DNA of 64,000 nucleotides from Patescibacteria group bacterium (GTDB taxonomy: Bacteria; Patescibacteriota; Microgenomatia; Levybacterales; UBA12049). The position numbers and the translations under genes are program-made. Below, piece by piece: positions 4,786-26,741 of the stretch. The DNA is taken from NCBI GenBank assembly GCA_035510535.1, contig DATKGY010000051.1, positions 6,882 to 70,881 on the forward strand, read 5' to 3'. Each line of letters opens with the position of its first letter. The stretch's first letter is position 1. Under the pieces are notes generated by a model that was not told where the DNA came from, searched no databases, and saw nothing but the letters and a program-made list of their open reading frames with translations.

Positions 4786-4789
4786 TTGC

Positions 4790-9002: not shown

Positions 9003-9387
9003 AAAAGAAAAACTCAGGGTTAAAATGAAATTAGTCTTTGTTGTCGTCATTCTTTTATTAATAGCAACTATCGGACTGGAGTATTTCTATTTCAATTTCG
9101 TCAAAGCCTCAGTCATTAGCCCTTTGGCAAAAAGTAAGATATCTAATCAAACTAATTTAGAAAATGAACTGACTCAGAGAAGAATTCTTTTTACCAGTGT
9201 TACAGCCAGTTCGGATGGTTCGTTCGCCATAACTCTTTTGGATGGGGGAGAGGTAATTTTATCCTCAAAAAAAGATATTGGGAGCCAATTATCCTCTTTA
9301 CAACTGATCCTATCTAGTCTTACAATAGAAGGAAAGAAGCTGAGAATTTTAGATTTCAGGTTTGATAATCCAGTTGTTTCGTTTTAA
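8977..9387 (+). CDS. Small FtsQ-like bitopic division protein. The start may be 9025.
   Basis: Basic N-terminal tail, one TM helix (LVFVVVILLLIATIGL), short extracytoplasmic domain. The call rests only on its position between murG and ftsA. Confidence 0.4.
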   Translation: MLRQKRLLKKEKLRVKMKLVFVVVILLLIATIGLEYFYFNFVKASVISPLAKSKISNQTNLENELTQRRILFTSVTASSDGSFAITLLDGGEVILSSKKDIGSQLSSLQLILSSLTIEGKKLRILDFRFDNPVVSF

Positions 9388-11859: not shown

Positions 11860-11884
11860 AACTCTAGCTTCATATTTTTAATAG

Positions 11885-11905
11885 AGCACCTTCGGGTGCT
11901 TTTTT
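11885..11905 (+). terminator. Rho-independent terminator after ftsZ
   Basis: agcacc-ttcg-ggtgct hairpin followed by a T5 run. Confidence 0.7.
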
Positions 11906-12035
11906 ATTACTTAAAAGTACTACGGGAGTAGGCATAAAGTTCGTTGATATTAATGGGATGTAGGGTTATATATATCAGTGAAGTTTAGGCATAAAAATAG
12001 TGGAATTTATCGGATTTTTATAGTATAATAAATTC

Positions 12036-12059
12036 AATAAATCCACTGTTTACTCCCCT
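12036..12059 (+). repeat. 24-nt direct repeat, copy 1 (aataaatccactgtttactcccct), in the integrase 5-prime leader
   Basis: Matches 13077-13100 at 23 of 24 positions. Its 3-prime part forms the hairpin tactccc/gggagta that contains the integrase SD. Confidence 0.8.
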
Positions 12060-12070
12060 AGAAAGGGAGT

Positions 12071-13081
12071 ATGAAAATAGACGAAAAAGATTTCCTCTCA
12101 TTTATCACAATTAAGAAGAATTTAGCTAATCAAAGCGTTAGGCATTGTAGAATACGCCTTAGAGTCATTGTTAAGTGGCTAGACGGCAGGGAATTGACTA
12201 AACAGCTTGTTGAACAGTTCTTCATGGAGTTAAAAAACAAAGGCCAAAGAAATAACTCTTTAAATACATATTATTTTGTCTTTAGACAAATACTTGATTA
12301 CTTCAGAGACAGGGGAATCCAAGTAGATTTCTTAGATGGTTTCTCGTCATTTAAAAAAGAGAAGCCGGATATAGTTATTCTATCCATAGAAGAAATAGAA
12401 AAATTAATTAACACCTCGCTTACATATGGAAAGCTGCAGGGGAAAGATTGTACATTTCTAAATATTAGATATGGAATATTAACCATGTTCATTGCGTATA
12501 CGGGTTGTAGATTCTCTGAGGCGTCAAAACTAAAAATCAAAAATCTAGATTTAAGCGAAGGAAAGGCAACGTTTATTGACACTAAAACAAACGAGAATAG
12601 AACAGTATATTTCACAGATCCTTTAATTACCAATTTAAAAGAGTTAATTCTAGGTAGGAAAATTGATGATTTAGTGTTCAGAAATTCTCAAGAGAATGAA
12701 ATAAATCCCCAAGACTTCTCAACAGATATAAAAAGACGAGCTAAAAAAGCGGGTATTATTAAGAGAATGTATCCACACGTTTTAAGGCATAGTTATATAA
12801 CGCACATGCTAGAAGCGGGCGTGCCAATTACTGAAGTTGCTACGCTTGTTGGACATAAAGACATTCAAACAACTTATTCAACCTATATGCATCTTGCGGA
12901 TCAAACATTAAGGAAAGCATCAATGAGAAATCCACTGATTATAAAAAATGTAAATCCGGTTGAAATATTGAAGTCAATTAGAGAAGCAATTGAAAATTTC
13001 CATGTTGATAATGATTCTAGGTTTTTCTATGATTTTAGGGATAAAGGAAATGAGATAGAGTTTAAGTTACTAGTTAAATAA
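12071..13081 (+). CDS. Tyrosine-type site-specific recombinase/integrase
   Basis: C-terminal catalytic region HVLRHSYITHMLEAG...LVGHKDIQTTYSTYMH (HxxR ... H ... Y). N-terminal SAM-like core-binding domain. Confidence 0.9.
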   Translation: MKIDEKDFLSFITIKKNLANQSVRHCRIRLRVIVKWLDGRELTKQLVEQFFMELKNKGQRNNSLNTYYFVFRQILDYFRDRGIQVDFLDGFSSFKKEKPDIVILSIEEIEKLINTSLTYGKLQGKDCTFLNIRYGILTMFIAYTGCRFSEASKLKIKNLDLSEGKATFIDTKTNENRTVYFTDPLITNLKELILGRKIDDLVFRNSQENEINPQDFSTDIKRRAKKAGIIKRMYPHVLRHSYITHMLEAGVPITEVATLVGHKDIQTTYSTYMHLADQTLRKASMRNPLIIKNVNPVEILKSIREAIENFHVDNDSRFFYDFRDKGNEIEFKLLVK

Positions 13082-13100
13082 ATCCATTGTTTACTCCCCT
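13077..13100 (+). repeat. 24-nt direct repeat, copy 2 (aataaatccattgtttactcccct), overlapping the integrase stop codon
   Basis: 23 of 24 identity to 12036-12059. Confidence 0.8.
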
Positions 13101-13105
13101 CGTTG

Positions 13106-13369
13106 CTATGAACTTTGTGTACCTCCTTCCATAAATGCTTTAAATACTTGTAATAGTTCGTGTTTGTTGCAATACCAACCATCGTTAAAGAAATTACAGA
13201 CGCAATCATGCACACATAACGCTTTGCCATATGACACTTTAAGATATGCCTTTTCAAAATCAACATGGCTAATGATTGAAGAAATTCTTCTTTTCTCTCC
13301 ACTAGAGGTATACATCTTCATCAGCCCGTTTTTAAAATACAGTTTCAATAATATTTTTGTCTTTTTCAT
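13106..13369 (-). CDS. Hypothetical small protein (87 aa)
   Basis: ORF only. It competes with an overlapping plus-strand ORF at 13164-13415. No recognisable motif. Confidence 0.25.
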   Translation of the reverse strand: MKKTKILLKLYFKNGLMKMYTSSGEKRRISSIISHVDFEKAYLKVSYGKALCVHDCVCNFFNDGWYCNKHELLQVFKAFMEGGTQSS

Positions 13370-13371
13370 AT

Positions 13372-13398
13372 TGTCCGATTTGTCCGATTTGTCAACTT
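13372..13398. repeat. Tandem 9-nt repeats tgtccgatt x2 plus a degenerate third (tgtcaactt)
   Basis: Read directly from the sequence. Intergenic. Confidence 0.7.
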
Positions 13399-13430
13399 TT
13401 ACTAACTATTCTTAAATTTCTTATATAAGA

Positions 13431-13470
13431 GTAAAAAACTTAGTTTTACTTAGTTTTTACTAGTTTTTAC
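13431..13470. repeat. Iteron-like array: one inverted plus three direct copies of tagttttTAC
   Basis: The sequence reads gtaaaaaact / tagttttact / tagtttttac / tagtttttac, contiguous and downstream of the minus-strand module. Confidence 0.7.
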
Positions 13471-13503
13471 ATGCTATGTAACATATATAACTAGAACATA
13501 TGT

Positions 13504-13785
13504 TTACTTATCTTCTAATAAGGATTCTTTAATTAGCTCTTCGTTATACTTATCGATTACCTGTGAACAGAGATCTGTCCAATCGTCTTTGGTATGGGTT
13601 TTGAAAAGGGGAATCCATGATTTTCCATTAAAATAACTTGGAGCAGTAACGAAGTCTTTTCCGGTTTTTTCATCTCGGAAGATTTTAAAGCCACGCAATT
13701 GATGGGTGTCAAAATCTATTGTTGCCCTTGCTTTAACTTTTGAATCGTTACTTGTTTTTGTAATATTAATATTAATTAGCTTCAT
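13504..13785 (-). CDS. SpoVG-like small nucleic-acid-binding protein (putative)
   Basis: 93 aa. VKARATIDFDTHQLRGFKIFRDEKTGKDFVTAPSY resembles the SpoVG core (A.A.I.D..F.V..I.V.....G.FV.MPS). Confidence 0.4.
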   Translation of the reverse strand: MKLININITKTSNDSKVKARATIDFDTHQLRGFKIFRDEKTGKDFVTAPSYFNGKSWIPLFKTHTKDDWTDLCSQVIDKYNEELIKESLLEDK

Positions 13786-13787
13786 GT

Positions 13788-14015
13788 TTATTCCTGATAT
13801 AGGCGACTCTTTACGTTCTTAATAGCTGAAAAATAATCTTGTGGGTTAACTTGAACTTTTCTTTTCCAATAAGCCTCAATCAGGCTTTCTAATTCTTTGC
13901 TTCTTTTGAAGAGAAATATTGTTTTGTTTGGATAAGTTTTATCTAAAGAGTCGATAGGAAAATAAAGATTTAAAAAAGCGGATAACGCTAGGTCTGATGT
14001 TTGATAGTGCTCCAT
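13788..14015 (-). CDS. DUF5659-like small protein
   Basis: 75 aa. The pattern SDLALSAFLNL...IFLFKRS...EAYW resembles the DUF5659 family common in CPR mobile elements. Assigned from memory, not from a search. Confidence 0.4.
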   Translation of the reverse strand: MEHYQTSDLALSAFLNLYFPIDSLDKTYPNKTIFLFKRSKELESLIEAYWKRKVQVNPQDYFSAIKNVKSRLYQE

Positions 14016-14102
14016 AATTAATAGAAGTATAAATTGTGCTGGTTAATAAAACATTCTGCTAAAGTATGGATTTTCGGAGAAAAACTAAGTTATTTGTCGA
14101 TA

Positions 14103-14909
14103 CTACAGGGGGTAGATTTGATTAAAATAGGCTTTTGTTTCATCCAATATTTTAGCGCATTCCATCCTAGTAGGAACATAGTCCTTGCCAAAATACGATG
14201 GGGTTTTGTCTATTAATGCATTGATTATTTCATCGATCTCTCCCCACGAATGTCTTTCTAGATCTTTCCATATGTAAATCTTTACGCCTAATGCAAATCT
14301 ATTAATATCAATTTTTTGAAGTTTTTTTCTTGGAAGATTTTTCAATACTGGTTCAATCTCTGGCTTCCAATGTTCTTTAAGGTATTGATAGACATTGTCA
14401 ATCTTAACGTCTTCAGATAAAACAATAGATGGATAATTATTCCTGTAATAAATACTGATACCTGCTTGCCACCATTCGATGTCGTCTTGTGTTGTAGCGT
14501 ACGATGGGGGGAAATGAAAAGAAATAGGTTCATAAGCGAAAGGTATAGGTAAAATATCTGTTAGAATTTTCATGCTAATAAACATCGACCATTCTTCGGA
14601 GATTTTATATTTTTGCAAAAAATTTCTCATAAGAGTCAACATCTTAGTAAAAGTTTTTTCGTCTACCTTTTTCCTTATATTTGTAAAAAAATTAGGATCG
14701 CTGCGGTCGTATGGAATTAGTTTGATTTCAAGGTCTTGTCTAATCTTGGAGAGTTCCTTAGATAGGGTTGGATGATAAGTTAAGATAAGGGCATAAGCAA
14801 ATATAGAAGGCTCAAGTGAATCTTCATGCCAATCAACAATCTCAAAAAGTTTTTTGTTAAAAATAAATGATTTTAAAATTTTTCCAATCTTCATATTAAT
14901 GCTGAGCAT
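14103..14909 (-). CDS. Hypothetical protein (268 aa), first gene of the minus-strand module
   Basis: Long ORF with host-like AT-rich codon usage and no motif recognised. The start could be the internal MKIGKIL. Confidence 0.5.
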   Translation of the reverse strand: MLSINMKIGKILKSFIFNKKLFEIVDWHEDSLEPSIFAYALILTYHPTLSKELSKIRQDLEIKLIPYDRSDPNFFTNIRKKVDEKTFTKMLTLMRNFLQKYKISEEWSMFISMKILTDILPIPFAYEPISFHFPPSYATTQDDIEWWQAGISIYYRNNYPSIVLSEDVKIDNVYQYLKEHWKPEIEPVLKNLPRKKLQKIDINRFALGVKIYIWKDLERHSWGEIDEIINALIDKTPSYFGKDYVPTRMECAKILDETKAYFNQIYPL

Positions 14910-14994
14910 ATTTTACTACTTCTTTTTTATACTGTCTATTTTGTTGAATTTAGTTGAGTTTTCCGAGACTTTAAAAAATAGAATAGTAAGCCTA

Positions 14995-15070
14995 TTGACG
15001 CAAATAATATTATTTACTAAGATTTATTTAGAGACCTTGCTTGGGCAAACCTGCGGGGTCTCTATTTTTT
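14995..15070 (+). promoter_or_regulatory. Candidate promoter (TTGACG-17-TAAGAT) followed at once by a strong hairpin plus T-run
   Basis: ttgacg 14995-15000 and taagat 15018-15023. Hairpin tagagacc 15029-15036 / ggtctcta 15057-15064, then T6 at 15065-15070. Confidence 0.4.
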
Positions 15071-15121
15071 GACTTCAATCAAGAATAAGAGTATAAAAAG
15101 TAAAGTAGTTATTTATTATTT

Positions 15122-15850
15122 GTGCCTAAATCAAAGAAGCATATAAAGAAAATAGATGAAGCTAAACCAGTAAATATTCTAGCGGATAAGCAATTGCTGG
15201 TGGTTATCGTAGTTGTATTAATAATATGTGTTCTGATTGGAATTAAGACAGTAAGTTCTTATGTATTAAGCTCTAATATAGCCCCAACTCCCACAATAGA
15301 TTTACCTATTCCAACTCCAACTCCGACTGATACTCCTACTCCAACTCCTGAAATCAAAATTACTAATGTTCCAATTGCAGATCCTGGTAGTAAAACAACA
15401 GATACTGCAGTTAGGCAAACTGGAAAATATACCTTCGAAGGAAACCTACCATGTGATGACAGAATGGGAGATGCATCAGAAATATATGCTGCACTTAATA
15501 ATTATAGGCAGGTTCATGGAGCAAGCTCTCTTGCATGGAATGATAAGCTAGCATCTGTAGCACAAATGAGAGTTGGTCAAATTACAGCAAATGGGGGGAG
15601 ATCAGATAGCCATGCTGGATTTATTACTTTTACAAACGATCAAAGCAACTATGCGAAAGTTGGATTTAGTGAATTAAGTGAAAATACGGGAGGAACTGGG
15701 AACTGTCCTTTGCTTGGAGTTCATGTCATTGAATGGTTATTTGCTAGAGATGCGCCACATAATAATGCCCAATTGGATAGATGGGATGCAGTAGGAATTG
15801 CTGAAGGTCAAAATAATGTTGTAGTGATTTTTGGAAGAAGCCCTTTGTAG
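15122..15850 (+). CDS. Membrane-anchored secreted CAP/SCP (PR-1-like) domain protein with a Pro/Thr linker
   Basis: GTG start. TM helix LLVVIVVVLIICVLIGI, linker PTPTIDLPIPTPTPTDTPTPTPE, then a CAP-like core (YRQVHGASSLAWNDKLASVAQ...HAG). Confidence 0.6.
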   Translation: MPKSKKHIKKIDEAKPVNILADKQLLVVIVVVLIICVLIGIKTVSSYVLSSNIAPTPTIDLPIPTPTPTDTPTPTPEIKITNVPIADPGSKTTDTAVRQTGKYTFEGNLPCDDRMGDASEIYAALNNYRQVHGASSLAWNDKLASVAQMRVGQITANGGRSDSHAGFITFTNDQSNYAKVGFSELSENTGGTGNCPLLGVHVIEWLFARDAPHNNAQLDRWDAVGIAEGQNNVVVIFGRSPL

Positions 15851-16018
15851 GGAATAACATAAATAAACGAAAAATATTATAAATTTTATATCCCAGAGTA
15901 AATCGCTTAGCCTCAAAACAATTTTAGGGTAGGGAGTTTAGCCTCAAATCTATGTCGTAATATAGATGTTGTGCGACATAGAGCATATTAATTATTTATG
16001 TGATATAATTTATTTAAT

Positions 16019-16912
16019 ATGCCAGGAAGAGGGAGACCAAGAAAAAATCCTATTCCTGCCCCACAAATTCAAGCTACCACACCGGTAGCTGCTACGGTTG
16101 TTGTTCAAGCACCACCAAAGAATGTTTTATTTTTTATTGACCAAACAGAAGCTGGTATCGGTAGAAGGGACATAGAGCTTGTTGAAAAAGTCTTAGATGG
16201 TAAATCGGGAGATTTATTATATCTAGTATTACAAACATACGGCGGTGATGTATATTCTGCCGTTAAAATTATGCGCATTCTGCAATTCAAATTTAAGGAG
16301 ATAAAAGTTATTATTCCTGATTTTGTTTACAGTTCTGGTACGATAATGGCATTAGGTGGAGATACGCTTTATTTCGATGTTGACGCATGCATTGGACCTT
16401 TGGATAAACCAATGGAGAATCCAAGAGATGGTTCTGATATCTCCTCACTGGATATTACAAATACTTTAACAAATATTGCTTCTACGATTGAGTCAATCGC
16501 AACTTCTTTTTATGGAAGCCTCAGGGTGGATAGCAAGATTAAGCTTTCTAAAATTGAAGCTGCAAAATTAGCTTATGAATCTGCTGTAAATATTGTTAAC
16601 CCAATTATAAATAAAATTGATCCGTACTTTTTACAAAGTGGATACAGGCAAACCCAAATCGGTTTAAGATACGCCGTAGATATGTTAGCTAGCAGAATGA
16701 AAAGGAATAATATTAAAGAGGCTGTCGATACCGCTCTTGATTTAGTTAATAAATACCCTGCTCATAGTTATGGCATTTATCGTGAAGAAGCAAAATATAG
16801 TTTAAATCTGGAAACAGAAAATTTAGAAACCCTAGCAGAATGGGGCACACTTAAAGTTAAGTTTGATACATTAAAGAAGTCTTCAAATGCAATTGAATTT
16901 ATGGTATTCTAA
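16019..16912 (+). CDS. SDH-family Clp-fold serine protease (S49/ClpP-like) with an N-terminal AT-hook
   Basis: LVLQTYGGDVYSAVKIMRIL...YSSGTIMALGGDTLYF...GPLD matches the serine-dehydrogenase-proteinase / SppA-ClpP fold pattern. The N-terminus GRGRPRKNP is an AT-hook motif. Confidence 0.6.
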   Translation: MPGRGRPRKNPIPAPQIQATTPVAATVVVQAPPKNVLFFIDQTEAGIGRRDIELVEKVLDGKSGDLLYLVLQTYGGDVYSAVKIMRILQFKFKEIKVIIPDFVYSSGTIMALGGDTLYFDVDACIGPLDKPMENPRDGSDISSLDITNTLTNIASTIESIATSFYGSLRVDSKIKLSKIEAAKLAYESAVNIVNPIINKIDPYFLQSGYRQTQIGLRYAVDMLASRMKRNNIKEAVDTALDLVNKYPAHSYGIYREEAKYSLNLETENLETLAEWGTLKVKFDTLKKSSNAIEFMVF

Positions 16913-17139
16913 TTACATGTTGAGTGGATATTTATATTTTAGCGATACTAACAAAAGGGATATTAAAACTGAGCCTAATAATATAAAAGTTACTGATATT
17001 TTAGAAGGCGGTCGAGAGATATTTTCTGATTGGATTGAAAAGGAAGCAACTAAAGTATTAGAGGCCAGGAAATCCTCCAAAGTTGAAAAGAGAAAATAAT
17101 CTACACTTGTTTTTCCAACATAAAAAGTCTATATTATCC

Positions 17140-17221
17140 TTAGGTGTTTTTAGTAGGAATTGAAGCTAGAAACAAGGGATGTCTTGGATAATCCCGCATG
17201 GCCTTGACAGATATCATTTAA
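17140..17221 (+). repeat. Decayed ftsZ-tail scar unit (copy D)
   Basis: About 60-65% identical by hand alignment over about 80 nt to the unit at 18391-18469. The tail part gat aat ccc gca tgg cct tga is a degraded DIPAF... sequence. Confidence 0.55.
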
Positions 17222-17239
17222 CTTTGCCATTATAAATAT

Positions 17240-18388
17240 ATGGAACCAAATACACCAAATAATGATTTAATTGCAAAAGCGAAAATTGATACCCTAGATA
17301 TTGTTTCTCCTCAAGAAAATGATAGTTTGGGTTCTACTGCTTGGAGAGAATACTTAAATAGCGGTTCTCTGGGAGATGTATGGTCTGTTCCTGAAGGAAG
17401 TCCTTATGCTAGGTTTCAAAAAAGTAGCACTATAGACTCCATAGATAAATGTGATAGCGTAATCAAACCACGATATAGCAAAGGCGAACAAACGAGTGAA
17501 AAAGGAATAGATACTTTAATAGCCACAGGTGTTTTAGATTCACATACTGCAATTGTTTTAGATTCTGGGCATGCTCATAGCGTAGCAATGGCAGTTAAAT
17601 TAGCAGAGCAGGGTTATCAACCCGTTGTGATGTTAAATGATGAAGTAACTTCAAATAGATCAAATTCTGCTGAACAAGGATTAGCAACTTTATTATATTT
17701 TGCTGAACAAGTGAAAATTTTAAAAGCACAAGGTAAAATTAAATCAGATTCTCCTCCAGTTTTTATTTTAGATTTTCATCGTAGCTCTAGTTTCGTGCCT
17801 CAAGATTTTCCAACTGGAGAAGAATTGAGTCAAGCTGGAATAGATAAGGTAGTGTATCTCAATGAAGGAGATCAAAGTGGCGAAATTAATGCCAACTATC
17901 AGTCTACTGATAGACTATCAAGGGATTTAAAGTCAATTGCTTCCAATTGGGAAAGTGAGGGTCTTAATATAACTTATACAGGGGTATCTCCTTGGGTGGG
18001 AGAGCGTAACGCTTTTTTCTCACAGGGTTTAGTTCGTGGATTAAGTCGTAGATTAAATATGGGCGGCGCTTATGTTAGTGATGGTTATGCTTTTGAATCC
18101 GGATTGTCATATTCCAATATGGATCCTGAGGTATATGGAAAGAAAGATGCTTTAGGAATTGCAATGCATCACAATAGAGAAAGGTTTATTTTTACTAGAG
18201 AGGGTAAGTTGGAGGTAATCAATGAAAGTGGAGTGGCAAGAGCTATGCAACCTGAGGAAATCGAACAATTTCAAGAAGCAATAAGAAAAGCATTGGAGCT
18301 TCATCCAGACAACTTACAGATGATGGACGTATCTAATAGATTATCACAAGCAATTCAACCGATTAGTTTAGAAAATAAAGATAAATAG
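17240..18388 (+). CDS. Hypothetical protein (382 aa)
   Basis: Long ORF lying between two ftsZ-tail scars. No motif recognised. Confidence 0.5.
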   Translation: MEPNTPNNDLIAKAKIDTLDIVSPQENDSLGSTAWREYLNSGSLGDVWSVPEGSPYARFQKSSTIDSIDKCDSVIKPRYSKGEQTSEKGIDTLIATGVLDSHTAIVLDSGHAHSVAMAVKLAEQGYQPVVMLNDEVTSNRSNSAEQGLATLLYFAEQVKILKAQGKIKSDSPPVFILDFHRSSSFVPQDFPTGEELSQAGIDKVVYLNEGDQSGEINANYQSTDRLSRDLKSIASNWESEGLNITYTGVSPWVGERNAFFSQGLVRGLSRRLNMGGAYVSDGYAFESGLSYSNMDPEVYGKKDALGIAMHHNRERFIFTREGKLEVINESGVARAMQPEEIEQFQEAIRKALELHPDNLQMMDVSNRLSQAIQPISLENKDK

Positions 18389-18390
18389 GT

Positions 18391-18469
18391 TTAGGCGTTT
18401 TTAATAAAAGTAGAAGTTAGAAAAGGGGATAGATAAGACATTCCCGCCTTCCTTAGACAAAAAAATTAG
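18391..18469 (+). repeat. ftsZ-tail scar unit (copy B). The tail proper is 18437-18469.
   Basis: gac att ccc gcc ttc ctt aga caa aaa aat tag encodes [10 protein letters not shown]. It is 25 of 33 nt identical to ftsZ 11827-11859 and all differences are synonymous. Confidence 0.85.
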
Positions 18470-18490
18470 ATAGTAGGCGAGGCTCGCCAC

Positions 18491-18523
18491 TGGCGGCCCG
18501 CATTTTTGCGACAAAAGAATTAA
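18491..18523 (+). repeat. ftsZ-tail scar (copy C)
   Basis: tgg cgg ccc gca ttt ttg cga caa aag aat taa encodes [10 protein letters not shown]. Confidence 0.85.
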
Positions 18524-18589
18524 GCTCTTTAAATTTCAGAATGACCTATAGTTGATTTTTGAGTCTTATAATGAGATAATTAAATTTAT

Positions 18590-19195
18590 ATGGAAAGCTT
18601 GGAATATTTACCAAAATTATATTTTATTAAATCAATTCCAAATGAGGAGTATGCATATTTAACACAATTTTTGACTTATGTTGTTCCTGCATTTACAAGC
18701 GAAGCTCCTTTATCTTTTGCTGTTCATCTTGGGGCTGCATTTGCTAAATCTGGTTTTAGCATGAGAAAGCTTGGCTTAGATTCGGGAGTAAGCCACTCGG
18801 AAATATCACGTTTATTAAGTAATAGTAAGATACCAAAATTAGCTACGGCAGCACGCATTATTGAGAGTCTAAACTTAAGTGATGCACAAGCATTTAAAAT
18901 AGTTGTAGATTCAATTCCCCTTGATGTAAAAAGTAATTCTCTTAGATCGGTTTTCGCAGACGCTGCGCCCCAGTTAAGAGGAAGCTTTAGAGAGCAACTA
19001 AAAGGATATAGGCAGGCAAGAGATTTATCAATACCGTTATTAGCTGCTAGGGCTAAAATCGATAGAGCATTTGTGTGGAGAGTAGAATCCGAAGGAAGAC
19101 CTCTTGGATTTATTACATTTGCTGCTTTAGTTTCTGCATTAGGCTTAAATCCTAAACAAGTTCGTGGTTGCCTAATTGCCGCCGCTAATCAATAA
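18590..19195 (+). CDS. Transcriptional regulator with two XRE-type helix-turn-helix domains
   Basis: Two HTH units: MRKLGLDSGVSHSEISRLLSNSKIPKLATAARIIESLNL and LKGYRQARDLSIPLLAARAKIDRAFVWRVESEGR. Confidence 0.6.
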   Translation: MESLEYLPKLYFIKSIPNEEYAYLTQFLTYVVPAFTSEAPLSFAVHLGAAFAKSGFSMRKLGLDSGVSHSEISRLLSNSKIPKLATAARIIESLNLSDAQAFKIVVDSIPLDVKSNSLRSVFADAAPQLRGSFREQLKGYRQARDLSIPLLAARAKIDRAFVWRVESEGRPLGFITFAALVSALGLNPKQVRGCLIAAANQ

Positions 19196-19239
19196 ATTAA
19201 GTTCGCTCAAATTCTTTCAGAACTTCGCTTCGGCTACGG

Positions 19240-19270
19240 CCTGCATTCATTCTTAAGGCAGAAGAATTAA
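19240..19270 (+). repeat. ftsZ-tail scar (copy E) carrying a 4-nt duplication
   Basis: cct gca ttc [attc] tta agg cag aag aat taa. Removing the duplicated attc restores PAFLRQKN*. As it stands the in-frame reading is FLRQKN*. Confidence 0.8.
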
Positions 19271-19294
19271 ATCCCAAATTTTCCACCCCATAGT

Positions 19295-19322
19295 TTGACT
19301 TTCAAGATTTTTGTGGTATAAT
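19295..19322 (+). promoter_or_regulatory. Near-consensus sigma70-type promoter (TTGACT-16-TGgTATAAT) facing the flp operon
   Basis: ttgact 19295-19300 and tataat 19317-19322 with an upstream TGn extended -10. Confidence 0.5.
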
Positions 19323-19630
19323 CCATGCTTAGTGACAAAATAAACCCGGACTAATTTGCTGTCCGGAGTTTTGTTCTGTTACTTAGTTTTAATTGCACTT
19401 TGACAAGTTGCGAAAAATATTTTCATCAGATGGTGACGCCTTGGACATTAAGCGATTAGTGTCTAGAGCGTCATCATCAGATGATCATAGTAGTTACAAA
19501 GAAAGGAGGGTACTCGACATATTGCATTTTCAAAAGAAAGTAGTATGAAGGGAGTATCTATAAGTTAGTACGGATTAGGTTCGGTTTCACGGTTGTTCAA
19601 TCACGCAAGAGAATAGGAGTGAGGACTACG

Positions 19631-19774
19631 ATGTTTCGTTTTTCATCCAAAGGACAAGGTCTCGCTGAATACGCACTCATTCTCGCTCTCGTCGCCATCG
19701 TGGCTGTCGTTGCACTGCTCTTTCTGAGCGGCGAAATCAAGTCAATCCTGAGCATCATCGGCAAGTCGCTCTAG
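19631..19774 (+). CDS. flp: Flp-family type IVb pilin (47 aa). Absent from the ORF track because of its size.
   Basis: My translation is MFRFSSKGQGLAEYALILALVAIVAVVALLFLSGEIKSILSIIGKSL. It has the Flp processing motif G-xxxx-EY followed by a hydrophobic helix. SD ggag lies about 10 nt upstream. Confidence 0.75.
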   Translation: MFRFSSKGQGLAEYALILALVAIVAVVALLFLSGEIKSILSIIGKSL

Positions 19775-19917
19775 CGCGTCGCACTCGTCACTTGCTTAAC
19801 TGCAAGCTTTATTTTGAGTCAAACGCAGTATGGAGGTGGATACCCACAAGGCTTAAAAGCCAGCGTCTCCCGTCAAGTAACCGAGTCATCGAAGACTCAC
19901 GAGTCAAGGAGGAAACC

Positions 19918-21195
19918 GTGTTTAGTGTTCGTCGATTTTTCGCTGTATTCGCATGTGCTGCACTTTTGGGTGTTAGCATATTTGCGATCACGGCCAGTCC
20001 TGTCGTTCATCAACAATCAGTAGCTGCGTGGTCCCAACCGGGATTCACCGCGGTCTACGACTGCGACGGCAATGTCATCACCACCGTTAATCTCGCCAAC
20101 GAAGGCCAAAACGCGAACTACGATTATCAATTGGCATGGGGACCGGTAGGGCTTACCAAGCAGAGTGATCTGAACGCTCTCAACTGGACGACCTATACCG
20201 GCGCACAAGGGAACAACCAACAGACCATCGCGGCTGGAACTGGAGTTCTCTACGTACGCTGGGTAGCTGATTACAACAGTTGGAACTCGGCAACTCCTAG
20301 CGCAGCTAGCAATTGCACGGCGCCGCCTGACCCGCCTGTCATCACGCCTGTCTGCATGACGACGCTTCAGAGCGACCATTCAGCTGACGACCCCGGCTAC
20401 ACGGAGTACAACTGGTACATCGTGCTTCCCGGCGTCGCGAACGACTACAACATGGACTATTCAACAAACGGAACCGACTGGGTTGGACCTGATGACTGGT
20501 CTGATCAAAACGATCCCATTGCTGGCGGCGGCTGGGGCGGACCTATGACTACAACCTCGTACCCGAACTTCGGGATCGACGGCCACGAGTTGTGGGTTCG
20601 CTGGTCTGCCTACAGTAGTGTGGTTATCGGTCCGGTCGTAAATCCATACCCAGTTACGGCAGCTGGTCGTTCCTGCGGCACTCCTACGCCTCCGGCTCCT
20701 CCTGTCGTAAAGTGCGGCGGAACGGTTTCGTTCAGCAATGTCCCCGACGGCTGGAAACTGATCATCGAACCTGACGTCCTTGTTACCTCTGGTTTCGATT
20801 CCATCAGCCTGGCCCCCGGCGACTACACTTACCAATGGCGAGATGCCGATAACAACGACATGGTTGGCGGCACCTTCACCATCGGCGTCTGTCCGACTCC
20901 GACTCCGACACCCGCACCTACGTGCGTTGTCTCTGTCAGAGCAGACACGGTTGTCCAAGTCACGCCCGCACCTTGCGCAACTCCGGTTGTCACACCGACT
21001 CCGAAATCGACTTCGACTCCGGTCGCTTCGACCTCTGTCAAGCCAAAGAAAACTCCGGCAACTACCAGTATCGCTGGCGGTTCAGATGAATCAGACTCCA
21101 ACAGCATCCCGCTGTTCCCTCTGTTCATCTGCCTGATTCTTGGCGGAATTGGTGTTGGGGTGACTCTCATGGTCCAAAGGCGAGCGGCCCATTGA
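19918..21195 (+). CDS. Secreted or surface protein with an internal repeat, Pro/Thr linkers and a C-terminal TM anchor
   Basis: The likely start is GTG 19918, 5 nt after AAGGAGG; the ORF-track start 19792 lacks an SD. N-terminal signal/anchor FFAVFACAALLGVSIFAITA. Repeated motif LYVRWVADYNSW / LWVRWSAYSS. CPTPTPTPAPTC linker. C-terminal LFICLILGGIGVGVTLMV-QRRAAH. Confidence 0.65.
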   Translation: MFSVRRFFAVFACAALLGVSIFAITASPVVHQQSVAAWSQPGFTAVYDCDGNVITTVNLANEGQNANYDYQLAWGPVGLTKQSDLNALNWTTYTGAQGNNQQTIAAGTGVLYVRWVADYNSWNSATPSAASNCTAPPDPPVITPVCMTTLQSDHSADDPGYTEYNWYIVLPGVANDYNMDYSTNGTDWVGPDDWSDQNDPIAGGGWGGPMTTTSYPNFGIDGHELWVRWSAYSSVVIGPVVNPYPVTAAGRSCGTPTPPAPPVVKCGGTVSFSNVPDGWKLIIEPDVLVTSGFDSISLAPGDYTYQWRDADNNDMVGGTFTIGVCPTPTPTPAPTCVVSVRADTVVQVTPAPCATPVVTPTPKSTSTPVASTSVKPKKTPATTSIAGGSDESDSNSIPLFPLFICLILGGIGVGVTLMVQRRAAH

Positions 21196-21485
21196 CCTGC
21201 TAAACTAGCCTGATCCACCTGGATTTAGACTAGCTCGTAGTGGAGAAGCTCAGCCATAGCTTGGTACAAAGGATCCATTTAGGATCTAACGCCAAAGCTT
21301 CTTGATGCTGAGCAACTCCGATTTGGAGAAAGAAAGGACTACTATGTTCAAAAAACAACCCGTTTCGGGATATCCAATCACAGCTAACGCTGAGAAAGGT
21401 CCCGAACCATTTTCGCAACGCACTCAAGTGTTAAAGGCACCGCAAGGTGATAGACTCTAAAGAGTATTTACTGCACGCGCAGTCT

Positions 21486-21510
21486 GCTGACTTTCGTCAG
21501 CTACTTTTTT
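21486..21510 (+). terminator. Rho-independent terminator closing the high-GC segment
   Basis: gctgac-tttc-gtcagc hairpin, then tac plus a T7 run. Confidence 0.6.
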
Positions 21511-21554
21511 TATTTTATTACCCCATGGTGCCTTTTTTCCTTTTTGGGAGAGGA

Positions 21555-23705
21555 TTACTCTTTCGTAGGCTTAGAATATCTTTCTTTGGAGACGCGGATT
21601 ACCGTTTTTCTATTCTGGTTTTTACTCATAGGGAGTGGCAGAGTTTGCGCCAAAAACGGCGGGCAGGTAATACTATCTATTGAAAGTTTTGTTAAGATTT
21701 GATAATTTCCCAGAGCCAATAAATCTTCTTCTTTAAATCTTTCCCCTAATTCTTTAGCCAAATAGAAAGCGTCCCCGGCGCCGACTATGAATGAAATTAA
21801 GCTTCCGACATTACCAAAAATTGCCGCTCTGACATCTTCGGGAACTTGCGCCATATACTGATTTGCCATAATTAAATCTAAGTGATATTTTCTGGCCTCG
21901 GACAAAATTTTAATAAAGGAATTAGTAGCAAAATTTTGGAACTCGTCAACATACAGATAAAAATCCTTCCTTTGCTCTTCAGCTAAATCAACCCGATTCA
22001 TCGCCGCCAGTTGTAGTTTTGTAATTATCATCGCGCCCAAAAGTGAAGAATTATCTTCTCCTAATTTTCCCTGAGAAAGATTAAGCAGTACAATTTTTCC
22101 TTCGTTCATAATTTTTTCCAAATCAATGGTTGACTTAGGAGCGCCGATAATATTTCTAACAATATTAGAAGATATAAATTGACCAACCTTATTAAGAATA
22201 GGCGAAATAGATTCGCTCATTAACCGTGGCGTCATGGTTTCAAATTCATTCAGCCAGTAATTTTTTAAAACCGGATCGTTTAGCTTTGCGACAACTTTGT
22301 CCCGGTAACTTTTATCCGTTAATAAACCGGGAACTTCCAAAAAAGTCGAATCGGGAACTTCCAAAAGGGTCAAAATAGTATTTCTTAAAATATACTCAAG
22401 CCGTGGTCCCCAGGAATTTCCATAAAGTTTTTTAAAGATAGAAACAATACCGGAAGCAACTAGTTCTTTTTGCGTGTTCCCGACCTCAAGCGGATTAAGA
22501 TGAAAAGAGCTTGAAGAAGAATCTGACGGATCCAGATAAATTACGTCGTTAATCCGGTTTGACGGAATGTAATCCAAAATTATTTCTGTTAAGTCCCCAT
22601 GCGGATCAATTACCGCTACCCCTTCTCCATTTCTGATATCGTTGATCGCCATATTGGCGATGAGCGTGGATTTTCCGGCGCCGGTTTTCCCGATAATATA
22701 AGTATGTTTTCGTCTATCCTTTCCTTTGATGCCAAAATTCGTCAGTTTATTTTTAAATTCGGTATTAGCAAAAAAATTAATCTCCTGTTTTTCTGCGTCG
22801 CCCAAACCTTGAGCGATTGGTAAATTTTCCGGCGGTTCGGAAAAGATGGCTTTAGTCCAAGAAAGATTGTGAATTTTGGCCAGCTGTTCCGTCGGTAGGT
22901 GGTAAAGACTGGCAATTTCCGAAACATTTAAAACTTGATTTGACGGGATAAAAGACCTACTGCGCTTAATAAGTGCTCTTTCAAATCTGTCTTTTTGCCA
23001 AAGATGCGGGCGTCTTAAATAAAAGCTGTTGCCGATGGGATTATTAAAAATAGAAAATCCGTTGACAATATTAAAGAATAAACCCGGATTGTCACTTTTA
23101 ACTAAGATTCTTATACCGGTGCGGAAACCGTTTTGGCTGATTTTATCGGTAATAATTTTTTTATATTGATTAAGAGGGTTCTCTCTGTCCGGATCTGTGC
23201 TTTTAAGAATTGCCGTTTGGCCTTTTGTCTGCCAGCCGGTACCGATTGGTACCAGTAGGTATTGAATTACCGCTTTGTCATCTTTATCCAGTTTTGCCAA
23301 AATCCCTAAAATTGAGCTTAGCGGATCAACGTCCTTAAAATCTTTATAAGTTTTTATTGGGAACAAAGCTCCATGTTTTAATTTAAGCCTTCCTTCATAA
23401 AGTTCTCCCGGGGAACTTAAGATATCCGGTAAGTAGTCCTTATTTTTTGCAATTAGCGCTTTGGGGTATTGAGCGGTTAACTGACCTTCAATAAAAGTTT
23501 GGAATTTCTGCGGAATCACAATAAAAAAATGAGTTCTCTGCTCAAAGGTGGCAATCTCTAGGCTAATTGGTATCCCGCGCCTGTAAAAATAGACTATTTG
23601 ACGTTTTAAGTTAACCAGACTGGAGAGAAATTGCGTCATGGCTTCCGAAGTTTCCTCGGTATTTCTGGGTGTTTTAATTTCCAAAATAACTTTGTCGCTG
23701 TCCAT
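21555..23705 (-). CDS. FtsK/HerA/TraD-VirD4-superfamily P-loop ATPase (type IV coupling-protein-like), soluble
   Basis: Walker A IIGKTGAGKST and Walker B FYLYVDEFQNF. C-terminal ARKYHLDLIMANQY...GNVGSLISF resembles the TraD/TraG C-terminal domain. No TM helices seen at the N-terminus. Confidence 0.6.
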   Translation of the reverse strand: MDSDKVILEIKTPRNTEETSEAMTQFLSSLVNLKRQIVYFYRRGIPISLEIATFEQRTHFFIVIPQKFQTFIEGQLTAQYPKALIAKNKDYLPDILSSPGELYEGRLKLKHGALFPIKTYKDFKDVDPLSSILGILAKLDKDDKAVIQYLLVPIGTGWQTKGQTAILKSTDPDRENPLNQYKKIITDKISQNGFRTGIRILVKSDNPGLFFNIVNGFSIFNNPIGNSFYLRRPHLWQKDRFERALIKRSRSFIPSNQVLNVSEIASLYHLPTEQLAKIHNLSWTKAIFSEPPENLPIAQGLGDAEKQEINFFANTEFKNKLTNFGIKGKDRRKHTYIIGKTGAGKSTLIANMAINDIRNGEGVAVIDPHGDLTEIILDYIPSNRINDVIYLDPSDSSSSSFHLNPLEVGNTQKELVASGIVSIFKKLYGNSWGPRLEYILRNTILTLLEVPDSTFLEVPGLLTDKSYRDKVVAKLNDPVLKNYWLNEFETMTPRLMSESISPILNKVGQFISSNIVRNIIGAPKSTIDLEKIMNEGKIVLLNLSQGKLGEDNSSLLGAMIITKLQLAAMNRVDLAEEQRKDFYLYVDEFQNFATNSFIKILSEARKYHLDLIMANQYMAQVPEDVRAAIFGNVGSLISFIVGAGDAFYLAKELGERFKEEDLLALGNYQILTKLSIDSITCPPFLAQTLPLPMSKNQNRKTVIRVSKERYSKPTKE

Positions 23706-23780
23706 AAATAAATACTTAATATATGCTACTACCTTAATAATAGCAAATATCTTTCAATAAAGAAAAGAAATTGGAATTCA

Positions 23781-23809
23781 TTGTCAAATTAAGCATGGCA
23801 AGCTATAAT
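23781..23809 (+). promoter_or_regulatory. Candidate ileS promoter TTGTCA-17-TATAAT, with the ATG 7 nt after the -10 box
   Basis: ttgtca 23781-23786, tataat 23804-23809, ATG at 23817. No SD. Confidence 0.45.
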
Positions 23810-23816
23810 AGAATTT

Positions 23817-26741
23817 ATGTTTAAGCCTGTTGATCAACAAGTTGATTTTCCTAAACTGGAGAACGATTTATTAACAAAATGGACCAATGAGGGTTTGCAG
23901 CAAAAATATCTCCACAAGAATGATTCCTCCGAAAAAAGATTCTCCTTTTTAGACGGCCCGATTACCGCCAATAACCCCATGGGAGTACATCATGCTTGGG
24001 GAAGGACTTATAAAGACGTCTGGCAAAGATTTTACAATATGCGAGGTTTTAAACAGCGTTTCCAAAACGGTTTTGATTGTCAGGGTTTGTGGGTGGAAGT
24101 GGAAGTTGAAAAAGAATTGGGAGTGCGAAATAAAAAAGACATCGAAAACTTAGTCCCGGGAGACAAAAAAGCCTCAATTGCTAAATTTGTTGAACTTTGC
24201 AAGCAGAGGGTTAACAAATATAGCGCGATTCAAACCGAACAAAGCAAACGCCTGGGTTATTTTATGGATTGGGATAACTCCTATTACACCATGTCGGACG
24301 AAAACAACTACATGATTTGGCATTTTCTAAAAACCTGCAATGAGCGCGGTTGGATTTATAAAGGTACAGATAGCGTACCGTGGTGTCCAAGGTGCGAAAC
24401 CGCAATTTCTCAACATGAAATACTCACCGAAGACTATAAAGAATTAACCCATGATTCAATTTTCATTCAATATCCTCTGTCCGACAAAAAAGAAACTTAT
24501 CTATTGGTTTGGACAACTACTCCCTGGACTTTGCCGGGAAATGTGGCGGTGGCGATTGATATTACTAAAGATTATGTTGAGACAGGGGGAGAAGTTGCCG
24601 GAAACACTTACATTTTAATTAAAGAAGCGGCGGAAAGACTCAATTTGAAAATAAAGAAAACTTTTAAGGGGAAAGAATTAATTGGTGAACGCTACGCGTC
24701 GCCTTTTGATAATCTGCCGCGGGTTAAAGAAGCTTTTGGCGATTATCGGCATCGGGTAGTTGCGTCAAATCCGTTAATTCTGCCAATTTCAGTTGAGGAA
24801 GGAACCGGTCTTGTGCATGTAGCGCCGGGGCAGGGAATGGAAGACTACCGGTTGGGCAAAAAAGAAAAACTGCCGGTGATAGAGTTAATTGACGACGAAG
24901 CCTTCTACATAGATGGAATGAATGAGTTTTCCGGTCAAAGCGCCAAGAAGCATCCGGAAATAATTATTGAGTTTATAAAAAAGTCAGGTAATCTTTTTAA
25001 GACAGAAAAATATACTCACCGTTATCCGGCTTGCTGGCGGTGCAAAACGGAACTGGTTTGGAAAGTCACTAAAGAGTGGTATATCGCGATGGATGTTCCC
25101 GAAAGGTCAAAAGTCAAAGATCAAAGTTCAAAAACCTTGCGGGAGCAAATGAAAGATACAGCCAAAATGATTTCGTGGCGTCCCGAGTTTGGCTTAGAAA
25201 GAGAACTGGATTGGCTTTCCAACATGAGCGACTGGCTAATCAGTAAGAAAAACCGTTACTGGGGTTTGGCACTGCCGATTTTTGAATGCCAAGAATGTGG
25301 GCATTTTGAGGTTATCGGTTCAAAAGAAGAATTGCGAGAGAAAGCTGTGGACGGTTGGAAGGATTTTGAGGAACACACGCCCCATAAGCCGTTTATTGAT
25401 AGCGTCAAAATAAAATGTTCACAATGTGGAAAATTAGTGTCAAGAGTGGATGATGTTGGTAATGTTTGGCTGGACGCCGGAATTGTCGGTTTTTCCACTT
25501 ATCTTGATCCCAAAACGAAAAAATTAAGTTATACCACAGATAAAAAATATTGGCAGGAATGGTTCCCGGCGGATTTTATCACCGAGTCTTTCCCCGGACA
25601 GTTTAAAAACTGGTTCTACTCAATGATTGCGATGTCCACAGTTTTGGAAAAAAGAAATTCTTTCAAACTAGTTTTAGGCTACGGTTCAATGCTGGGCGAA
25701 GATGGCCGGCCAATGCACAAATCCTGGGGAAATATGATTGAATTTGGGCAGGGAGCGGAAAAAATCGGCGTTGATGTAATGCGCTGGATGTTTGTGACTC
25801 ACAATCCCGAGCAAAACCTGCTCTTTGGCTATAAAAAAGCCGATGAAACACGCCGGAAGTTTCATTTGATGCTTTGGAATGTCTACAATTTCTTTGTGAC
25901 TTACGCCAATATAGATAAATATCAAAAGTCAGAAGTTAAAAGTCAAAAGTCAGATAACATATTGGACCGATGGATACTTTCAAGACTTAATCAGGCCATC
26001 GAGACTACGACAAAGGGCTTAGAGGCTTACGATATTCAACGAGCAACGCTTTCCATCGAAAATTTTGTGAATGATCTGTCTCTTTGGTATATCCGAAGAA
26101 GTAGGGAGAGGGTCGGACCTTCCGCCGAAGATGAGCAAGATAAAAATGCATGTTACCAAACTTTACATTTGGTTCTTGTCACTTTGGCTAAGTTACTGGC
26201 GCCTTTTACACCGTTTATCGCCGAAGAAATTTATATCAATTTAACCGGTGAGGAATCTGTTCATCTTAGCGATTGGCCAACTGTTGACAAGAGTTTAATT
26301 GATGAAGAACTGGAAACAGAAATATTAAAAGCCAGGCAAGTCGTTGAAGCAGCGCACGCCTTAAGAAAGCAAGCCGAAATAAAAGTCAGAATCCCAATTA
26401 AAGATATGACGTATGATGGACCCGATGAATTATCAACAGAAGTTCTCAGAACCGTTAAGGACGAAGTAAATGCTTATAATCTTTCATTTGGTAAAAAAGC
26501 AGACGTCTATGCGGTAGCGGCTAAGACCAGTGACGATAATTTGGACTTAAACTTTGGCTTGGCCCGCGATATTGTCCGCAAAATTCAGGAAGAAAGAAAA
26601 AATCTGCAAACCCAACCAAACGAAAAAGTAAAGATTACGATTCCTTTCTGGCCAAAAGAACACGAAGCTTACATTAAAAGAAAGGCAATGGTTAATTCAA
26701 TTACCGAGGCAGAAAAATTTTCGGTGACAAAAGATGAATAG
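23817..26741 (+). CDS. ileS: Isoleucyl-tRNA synthetase
   Basis: 974 aa class I aaRS. HIGH-region PMGVHHAWGRT, zinc-knuckle CPRCETA / CWRCKTE, editing domain, KMSKS-region MHKSWGN. Confidence 0.9.
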   Translation: MFKPVDQQVDFPKLENDLLTKWTNEGLQQKYLHKNDSSEKRFSFLDGPITANNPMGVHHAWGRTYKDVWQRFYNMRGFKQRFQNGFDCQGLWVEVEVEKELGVRNKKDIENLVPGDKKASIAKFVELCKQRVNKYSAIQTEQSKRLGYFMDWDNSYYTMSDENNYMIWHFLKTCNERGWIYKGTDSVPWCPRCETAISQHEILTEDYKELTHDSIFIQYPLSDKKETYLLVWTTTPWTLPGNVAVAIDITKDYVETGGEVAGNTYILIKEAAERLNLKIKKTFKGKELIGERYASPFDNLPRVKEAFGDYRHRVVASNPLILPISVEEGTGLVHVAPGQGMEDYRLGKKEKLPVIELIDDEAFYIDGMNEFSGQSAKKHPEIIIEFIKKSGNLFKTEKYTHRYPACWRCKTELVWKVTKEWYIAMDVPERSKVKDQSSKTLREQMKDTAKMISWRPEFGLERELDWLSNMSDWLISKKNRYWGLALPIFECQECGHFEVIGSKEELREKAVDGWKDFEEHTPHKPFIDSVKIKCSQCGKLVSRVDDVGNVWLDAGIVGFSTYLDPKTKKLSYTTDKKYWQEWFPADFITESFPGQFKNWFYSMIAMSTVLEKRNSFKLVLGYGSMLGEDGRPMHKSWGNMIEFGQGAEKIGVDVMRWMFVTHNPEQNLLFGYKKADETRRKFHLMLWNVYNFFVTYANIDKYQKSEVKSQKSDNILDRWILSRLNQAIETTTKGLEAYDIQRATLSIENFVNDLSLWYIRRSRERVGPSAEDEQDKNACYQTLHLVLVTLAKLLAPFTPFIAEEIYINLTGEESVHLSDWPTVDKSLIDEELETEILKARQVVEAAHALRKQAEIKVRIPIKDMTYDGPDELSTEVLRTVKDEVNAYNLSFGKKADVYAVAAKTSDDNLDLNFGLARDIVRKIQEERKNLQTQPNEKVKITIPFWPKEHEAYIKRKAMVNSITEAEKFSVTKDE

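Follow-up and report, generated by a model that had tools for sequence, protein, structure and literature searches.

Tandem accretion at a shared attachment (att) site, in which integrative and conjugative or mobilizable elements (ICEs and IMEs) stand with cis-mobilizable elements (CIMEs) that move with them in cis, is already an established scheme as set out in section 2.3 of one review (PMC5704250); for ICESt1/ICESt3 and the CIMEs at fda in Streptococcus thermophilus, the same review cites Pavlovic 2004 and Bellanger 2011. Tycheposons form Prochlorococcus islands at tRNA/tmRNA targets, where older elements are pushed further in and partial-tRNA scars are left (bioRxiv 10.1101/2020.12.28.424599), and protein-coding genes serve as targets for SGI1 at the 3' end of trmE (PMC8409611) and for islands at the 5' end of dusA (PMC4482086). 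Here we describe a locus of this general kind at the 3' end of ftsZ, in a 64,000-nt stretch of the Patescibacteria contig DATKGY010000051.1 (the window), where ftsZ is followed by a tyrosine integrase gene and where copies of the ftsZ tail recur at sites designated D, B, C and E, the real tail being A. A preliminary description had seen single same-strand gene modules between these tail scars, and had offered either the erosion of old elements to one gene each or the integron-like capture of small cassettes. We consider, at a probability of roughly 0.78, that the array reflects site-specific tandem accretion at the ftsZ 3' end with decayed integrase-less remnants, and not integron-like cassettes; the decay of tandem islands was essentially the right choice, except that D-B is not independent and B-C is native.

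The 6,610-bp unit at the ftsZ 3' end

Look-ups of exact proteins yielded ~20 contigs at strain level; they represent at least 10 samples, and each matches the window at 100% identity. Four of them (L002, L004, L128 and L129; L-numbers denote the related loci or contigs compared with the window, itself labelled WIN) join position 11837 to 18437 via an 11-bp shared core, GACATTCCCGC, at 100% identity. Because these empty-site contigs skip from 11837 to 18437, the interval 11838-18447 is a single present/absent unit, and its features and those of the sites around it are as follows.

10738-11859 (+): ftsZ, the target gene, 373 aa (Pfam Tubulin and FtsZ_C)
11827-11837 (+): attL core GACATTCCCGC, identical to 18437-18447, with the crossover placed within the core
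11838-18447 (+): composite integrative element of 6,610 bp that strains have or lack as a whole, comprising the integrase, the cargo, site D and the 382-aa gene
11863-11908 (+): element left end, where TCTAGCTTC (11863-11871) repeats the arm motif GAAGCTAGA in inverted orientation and an intrinsic terminator comes next
11883-11902 (stem) plus T run, to 11908: the element-borne intrinsic terminator, predicted to end the ftsZ transcript
12071-13081 (+): tyrosine integrase of Xer/phage type, 336 aa (Pfam Phage_integrase 5.6e-33; NCBIfam)
13106-17099: variable cargo, with proteins of 87 aa, 93 aa (SpoVG-like), 75 aa (DUF5659) and 268 aa on the minus strand, and of 242 aa (CAP-domain), 297 aa (SDH/ClpP-like protease) and 70 aa on the plus strand
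17105-17199 (+): site D, a right arm (GAAGCTAGA at 17162-17170) plus core-like GATAATCCCGC (17187-17197), a putative internal relic junction, attI-like
17200-18436 (+): integrase-less module, the 382-aa gene (17240-18388) and then a partial second right arm (18390-18436, with GAAGTTAGA at 18413-18421)
18437-18469 (+): site B, attR, the core (18437-18447) plus the native ftsZ tail, which is the ftsZ tail of the empty-site contigs
18470-18523 (+): native post-ftsZ spacer and pseudo-tail C, a GC hairpin GCGaGGCtCGCC-act-GGCGGCCCGC running into C (18497-18523), which encodes PAFLRQKN and a stop
18590-19195 (+): dual helix-turn-helix (HTH) regulator, 201 aa (Pfam HTH_31 and HTH_3), between C and E, fixed in the strain contigs
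19239-19283 (+): site E, a decayed tail CCTGCATTC[ATTC]TTAAGGCAGAAGAATTAA with no recognisable arm to its left

The empty-site junction was seen in four assemblies from three pipelines (L002 from JGI 3300037210, L004 from ERZ27247323, and L128/L129 from Logan SRR8693976 and SRR8695230), and two of these are MEGAHIT k141 contigs. The last 22 nt of ftsZ in the window (11838-11859) come from the inserted element, and the empty-site contigs encode the identical 373-aa FtsZ, ending in tail B with different, synonymous codons. Both forms, with and without the insert, were recovered from the same or sister samples (L010 and L129 both come from SRR8695230), and contig ends cluster exactly at 11808 and 18437, as expected of a branch in a k=31 assembly graph. 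A precise empty site is thereby found in close relatives, together with a direct-repeat core at both ends of the element, one of them inside the target gene.

The preliminary description had proposed asking whether the modules between scars are present or absent as discrete units, and had itself held that cassette capture fails if the locus is invariant or if variation does not respect the scar boundaries. Among the ~20 strain-level contigs no variation occurs at D, C or E, which for these three is the outcome named there as telling against capture, and A/B is the only polymorphic boundary pair: L122-L125 run through D without interruption, and L002, L122, L123, L126 and L127 do so through C, the HTH gene and E. 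The interval D-[382 aa]-B, listed as a module, is not independent but travels with the integrase inside the 6,610-bp A-to-B element, and C-[HTH]-E is a fixed feature of all strain-level contigs.

Two other sets of contig ends were observed. The ends of four Logan contigs, which stem from different runs, lie at 19364-19367, just before a high-GC pilin operon described below, and in two assemblies made independently the contigs break off at 14513-14515 and start again at 16983 (region 16903-16983), which suggests further strain-level branch points before the pilin operon and in the cargo. A look-up of the 268-aa cargo protein, made to explain the contig breaks near 14515, returned no record.

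Attachment sites and copies of the ftsZ tail

All catalytic residues of the integrase (R, HxxR, H and Y) are present in an alignment to XerD (1a0p), its best PDB match, and its gene starts 211 nt past the ftsZ stop, its relatives being placed alike. A scan of one genome per species identified 21 full-length relatives, 20 at 49-64% identity and one at 33%, in hosts that include Levybacteria, Gottesmanbacteria and Daviesbacteria; ftsZ is the immediate neighbour in 14 of the 21, and the other seven have an ftsZ-tail-like att match within ~300 nt. Duplicates of the ftsZ tail lie 5.6-8.4 kb downstream in L012, L015, L016, L019, L022 and L025, hits of a regular expression for the tail numbered 29 on the strand of ftsZ and two on the opposite strand, and the integrase is the sole gene common to all 13 related elements compared. 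We also noted an arm-like sequence (E=4e-11) on the minus strand of L034 (18706-18798), ~3 kb past ileS and far from any ftsZ tail, which may mark where a related element attaches at a different target.

Within the window, a degenerate ftsZ-tail pattern (PAFLRQKN and a stop) gave four matches in 64 kb where 0.02 were expected, and an nhmmer profile of the element right arm plus tail, built from 11 sites that all lie in other genomes, gave exactly five significant window matches in a search of 128 kb, with nothing else below E=0.09.

A, the real tail: pattern match 11833-11859; profile match 11809-11867 (E=2.4e-8)
D: profile match 17105-17199 (E=8.7e-16)
B: pattern match 18443-18469; profile match 18390-18472 (E=1.4e-10)
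C: pattern match 18497-18523; profile match 18497-18534 (E=6e-4)
E: pattern match 19244-19270; profile match 19248-19283 (E=1.2e-3, the alignment covering tail positions only)

These matches bear out the places at which the preliminary description had put its ftsZ-tail scars, and the gene content given there between them is likewise accurate (the 382-aa open reading frame (ORF), the dual-HTH gene, and then a high-GC flp/surface-protein segment up to a terminator). The ~45 nt of non-ftsZ sequence that it found common to the left flanks of D and B is real, as their global alignment scored 18, above all 2000 shuffles (mean -4.4, maximum 10). It corresponds to the conserved right arm of the element family, which was found in at least 10 loci outside the window and in which aggtgtttttagta...tGAAGCTAgaaa stands on the left flank of every displaced tail, ending ~20 nt before the core. 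For D, described as a tail scar like the others, all of the statistical signal comes from the arm and the core GATAATCCCGCAT, and none from the "tail" beyond 17199.

The left ends of the elements carry their own signals. The terminator AGCACC-loop-GGTGCTTTTTT, ~25 nt past the replacement stop, is conserved after the tail also in L011, L012, L015, L016, L019 and L026. Among 15 integrase-bearing left ends, the inverted motif TAGCTTCA is present in seven and the terminator in seven, with both in WIN, L015 and L016, and neither was found in any of eight integrase-less left ends, D included. Because the terminator lies beside the replacement ftsZ stop, the element would bring the end of the gene together with a transcription stop. 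Tails A and B encode the same peptide with 8 nt differences, all synonymous, and across 10 pairs of element-borne and displaced tails there are 39 synonymous codon differences and one non-synonymous difference. The tails also track host-specific FtsZ endings (QKN, QRN, NRN, QIR and QRS), and the core covaries with the host codon, reading CCCAC where FtsZ reads PTFL. The 39 differences to one, taken with the host-matched endings, argue that the element tail is selected to complete FtsZ correctly.

Based on these observations we propose that the ftsZ 3' end, at the codons for the conserved C-terminal DIPAFLRxxx, acts as attB for small elements (5.6-8.4 kb) in Microgenomates of the candidate phyla radiation (CPR); as these codons are as conserved as a tRNA gene, they would offer a good landing pad. 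The corresponding attP would join the conserved right arm to a core (~TCCCGCA) and then to a substitute ftsZ tail, followed in many members by the inverted-repeat motif and the terminator, and a crossover in the core would fuse the synonymous tail and terminator of the element to ftsZ while shifting the old tail downstream as attR. By virtue of a host-matched synonymous tail, and in many members a terminator, the elements could sit harmlessly in an essential gene. Repeated integration and decay would then leave a stack of tails between ftsZ and ileS. Under this proposal the window unit, from A (attL) to B (attR), would be a composite of a complete integrase element (A-D) and an integrase-less one-gene remnant (D-B), and we infer that the integrase catalysed the A x B event. 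D would be a dead internal junction, B the native tail, C an older pseudo-tail that is a secondary att site in at least one relative, and E a still older decayed tail, while the HTH gene, the high-GC pilin operon and a coupling-protein gene further downstream would be fixed residues of earlier insertions.

Tandem arrays were also found in other genomes (L021+L024, L012, L025, L036 and L134). On contig CAYHHA010000006.1 (L021+L024), two integrase elements stand behind one ftsZ, ~16 kb apart, with an arm+tail site directly upstream of the second integrase. In IMGVR_UViG_3300027835_000014 (L134, 64-7385), a predicted viral contig of 34.7 kb, a 5.8-kb element whose integrase is 60% identical to that of the window lies between a tail and an arm+tail site, next to another integrase (31% identical). 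Here a small element may be stacked with a provirus at sites of one kind.

The sites of the window differ in how much of an att site they retain. The GAAGCTAGA motif of D is a perfect inverted copy of the left-end TCTAGCTTC, and in the core region of D 2 of 11 positions depart from A and B. The D arm is 85% identical to that of L015, 80% to that of L039 and only 65% to the B arm, and since it is closer to L015 than to B, D and B derive from two different elements. D itself, judged by its arm and core, would be the genuine right end of an integrase-bearing element. An origin of D and B by internal duplication of the right end was rejected, given arms that are 65% identical and a D arm 85% identical to that of another genome.

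The 382-aa gene of the D-B module has a promoter-like TTGACA-18-CATTAT (17204-17233) directly against its ATG; the module has neither the left-end motif nor the terminator. As separate observations, promoter-like hexamers (17204-17240 and 18552-18590) end 7-10 nt before the ATG of the 382-aa and HTH genes, positions that would mean leaderless or near-leaderless transcripts, and the -35 hexamer at D falls within the decayed tail. The 382-aa protein had been called an orphan, yet it has 89 homologues at 39-60% identity in a family widespread in Patescibacteria, its own exact entry (from a Patescibacteria metagenome-assembled genome (MAG)) not being counted. The protein matched no family in Pfam, NCBIfam, PHROGs or PADLOC. 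In a confident AlphaFold model (predicted local distance difference test score 83) strands and helices alternate in a way that we read, from the secondary structure, as an alpha/beta domain with a small beta domain behind it, and a Foldseek search with it against the PDB gave nothing at E<=0.001, with template modelling scores of at most 0.23. In several contexts the neighbours of the homologues are of mobile-element type (AbiEii, Bro-N, GIY-YIG, DUF5659 and MT-A70), and no att arm or tail was found near the homologues in six other contexts (L114-L121 and L138-L140). A role of the gene as a travelling "cassette" was rejected on account of these contexts, which have no arm or tail.

The interval between B and C had been listed among the modules, at about 20 nt. 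B and C together are homologous to the sequence after ftsZ at the unoccupied loci L037 and L038, and to the sequence after attR in L016; given this match to post-ftsZ sequence in unoccupied relatives, B-C is not a module, and the ~27-nt interval is conserved native sequence with a terminator-like hairpin. The hairpin, followed by a T run, has a predicted RNA folding energy of -17 kcal/mol and is the same in L038, and a hairpin of different sequence occupies the same place in L037. C is likely an old pseudo-tail or att relic that is now part of the ftsZ terminator hairpin, and in L020 an integrase element is inserted at the C-equivalent secondary site and not in ftsZ itself. The HTH regulator beyond C has a single homologue, 41% identical and in an unrelated context. 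Site E encodes SFLRQKN and a stop, and reads PAFLRQKN and a stop once its 4-nt insertion is taken out.

Alternative readings of the tail array

Several observations do not sit easily with tandem accretion and decay. No relaxase, type IV secretion system, oriT or transfer genes were detected in 11838-18447 by Pfam, NCBIfam or PHROGs (a VirD4-like gene at 21555-23705 lies outside the mobile unit), and no excisionase was recognised in the element. Exact matches to a circular attP junction were absent from IMG/VR, and no attP-type contig break was seen. The A/B indel alone reads equally as integration or excision, and by itself falls short of strict proof of integrase action over an 11-bp microhomology deletion. 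The tail of D is unrecognisable despite a very well-kept arm, which is odd for simple neutral decay, and, as E is without an arm, C-HTH-E is not assignable to the ftsZ element family. Finally, several integrase-less units (D-B, L039 and L012) consist of one gene or a pair of genes, are neat, nearly flush with their att sites and equipped with promoter-like sites of their own, which decay does not specifically predict.

This last point leads to an alternative in which the modules (gene, arm and core) are mini-elements inserted alone, by the integrase of a neighbouring element acting in trans on double-stranded att sites. The att-flanked units without an integrase are the following.

Window, D-B: the 382-aa gene
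L039: a CNNM/CBS gene, 1.3 kb
L012: 0.76 kb, two ORFs
L036: two units

They are compact, almost flush with their sites and diverse in cargo, and a promoter-like site often follows directly after the tail. The module without an integrase lies closest to ftsZ in both L012 and L039, where the most recent insertion would be expected, but integration into the attR of a resident remnant yields the same order (PMC5704250, section 2.3). The module tail of L039 (QKN) has replaced a native NRN tail: FtsZ there ends in ...RQKN and the displaced tail in ...RNRN, and the insertion therefore altered the last residues of FtsZ. In that locus (4067-5400) one CNNM/CBS transporter gene was observed between ftsZ (80% FtsZ identity) and an arm+tail site. 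Against insertion in trans, the modules have no left-end motif and no terminator, the D core is 2 of 11 positions off A and B, the right flank of D is unlike a tail, and no module was found on its own or in polymorphic form in the contigs and contexts examined. Decay, with later integration into attR, accounts for such units. We therefore regard it as unlikely that single-gene units are minimal mobile modules (a gene, a ~50-nt arm and a core) inserted in trans, with the ftsZ end as a gene-capture platform using double-strand sites. If this were true, the ftsZ end would be a functional parallel to the integron in streamlined CPR genomes, one that can swap the last residues of FtsZ.

The integron-like reading, in which a resident recombinase beside ftsZ takes up small promoterless cassettes singly and the scars are the cassette sites, is in our view very improbable. 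It draws on the recurrence of same-strand, single-gene, integrase-less intervals bounded by att sites (D-B in the window, L039, L012 and L036), each with its own copy of the conserved right arm. The integrase, however, lies inside the 6.6-kb present/absent unit and not on a fixed platform, and it does not resemble an integron integrase: it scored 85 bits against TIGR02249 (cut-off 265), matching only model positions 236-304, and 57 bits against PRK15417 (cut-off 435), and its best models are of XerA/XerD type, likewise below their own cut-offs. Nor do the scars fold as single-stranded DNA in the attC-like way for which a check had been suggested, as D, B and E on both strands and A on the top strand only were no better than 200 shuffles (z of -0.4 to +0.9), and C, the sole structured scar (DNA z=-2.1), owes its structure to the GC hairpin and T run that are kept at unoccupied sites. 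No strain contig varies at D, C or E, homologues of the 382-aa protein in six other contexts are not accompanied by an arm or tail, the modules bring promoter-like sites with them, and those without an integrase do not have the left-end inverted motif that is present in 7 of 15 integrase-bearing left ends. The type and mobility of the integrase, the folds, the lack of module variation and the contexts of the 382-aa homologues all argue against the cassette capture raised in the preliminary description.

The weakest alternative, that the A/B indel arose by spontaneous deletion across the two 11-bp direct repeats, or through faulty assembly, and that every scar is a fossil without activity, has a very slight chance of being right: such microhomology can support rare deletions, and one event could underlie all empty-site contigs, but the junction recurs in four assemblies from three pipelines, among them MEGAHIT k141 contigs that an 11-bp repeat could not mis-join, its breakpoints fall exactly at the family-wide att core, the catalytic residues of the integrase are in place, purifying selection acts on the tails, and occupied and empty forms share samples.

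The ftsZ-ileS gap and comparison with known systems

In relatives the gap between ftsZ and ileS measures less than 100 nt (L047, L050 and L057) or 0.9-1.3 kb (L038 and L034), its content is different in each relative, and the ancestral gene order, as read from this comparison, is ftsZ-ileS. Since ftsZ stands directly before ileS in relatives free of insertions, the entire 12 kb from 11860 to 23816 of the window would have accreted. The order of genes 3' of ftsZ is the integrase, small or unannotated genes, the 382-aa ORF, the dual-HTH gene, the high-GC segment, a VirD4-like ATPase and ileS, and the closest FtsZ is 87.6% identical, from a Levybacteria MAG. The remaining features around this region are listed here.

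9387-10685: ftsA, at the end of a cell-division/cell-wall gene cluster, just before ftsZ
19295-21501 (+): high-GC operon, with a promoter-like sequence (19295-19322), a Flp-like pilin (19619-19774), a secreted/anchored protein, a small ORF and a terminator (21486-21501)
19792/19918-21195 (+): the secreted/anchored protein, 425-467 aa
21555-23705 (-): VirD4/TraD-like coupling-protein ATPase, 716 aa (Pfam, NCBIfam), inside the ftsZ-ileS gap
23817-26741 (+): ileS, the ancestral right-hand neighbour of ftsZ and far limit of the ~12-kb accreted region 11860-23816

The high-GC operon stands out by its composition (47-61% GC over ~19600-21250, against ~36-40% for the genome) and looks like a recent transfer from a high-GC donor. 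Its near-consensus extended -10 promoter (19295-19322) is followed by a ~300-nt leader; an Rfam scan of 11700-23900, covering such possibilities as a riboswitch in this leader, found nothing credible. We call the pilin Flp-like on the basis of Pfam hits below the gathering cut-off and a G/LAEY motif seen by eye. The 425-aa protein has only 11 homologues, and no att-profile hits fall in 19295-21501. The VirD4/TraD-like ATPase is isolated in the gap: neither further secretion genes nor an att site accompany it, and a full match to this coupling protein was found in none of 103 related loci, the sole match being one 41-aa BlastP segment in L025.

The mobile DNA of CPR/Patescibacteria is poorly charted, and here a whole integrase family attaches at the codons of the FtsZ C-terminal peptide, making the ftsZ-ileS gap a hypervariable hotspot in otherwise tiny, streamlined genomes. 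The coexistence of occupied and empty alleles is a concrete case of ongoing gene flux in an uncultured lineage. The look of a cassette array is accounted for by a known process, with no new integron-like system: the mechanism is that of integrative islands at gene 3' ends with tandem accretion. What appears to be new is the use of the FtsZ C-terminal-peptide codons as target, the element-borne terminator of some members, and the host clade; an incomplete literature search, and hence weak evidence of novelty, found no report of ftsZ as an att site.

Of the described systems, the ICE/IME-CIME arrays come closest. They share with the ftsZ locus a tyrosine integrase at the 3' end of a conserved gene whose reading frame the element restores, the arrangement of attL, element, internal att site, integrase-less remnant and attR, and the accumulation of decayed att-flanked remnants, and in their scheme recombination of attL with attR mobilises the whole composite, as the present/absent indel here would have it. 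The ftsZ elements differ in their target, in their CPR Microgenomates hosts and in being only 5.6-8.4 kb long, and, unlike ICEs or IMEs in the strict sense, they have no recognisable relaxase, oriT or conjugation genes. Tycheposons resemble them in partial copies of the target gene, degenerate remnants and populations mixed for presence and absence, but target tRNA/tmRNA genes and have recombinase and replication modules of their own, whereas the integrase alone is common to the ftsZ elements, and no capsid, terminase or replication hallmarks were found in the window element, whose only PHROGs matches were the integrase and a ClpP/SDH-like protease family without known function. With SGI1 and the dusA islands they have in common an integrase family tied to one housekeeping gene, an att site inside coding sequence and an element that supplies the end of the gene; the target gene, the integrase lineage and the host phylum are other, and SGI1-type islands carry mobilisation functions, which were not found here. 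The likeness to integrons, a recombinase followed by short same-strand gene units between repeated site-like sequences, is superficial, as the integrase is mobile and not IntI, the att sites derive from a gene tail, are of double-stranded type and have no attC hairpin, and the units do not vary individually.

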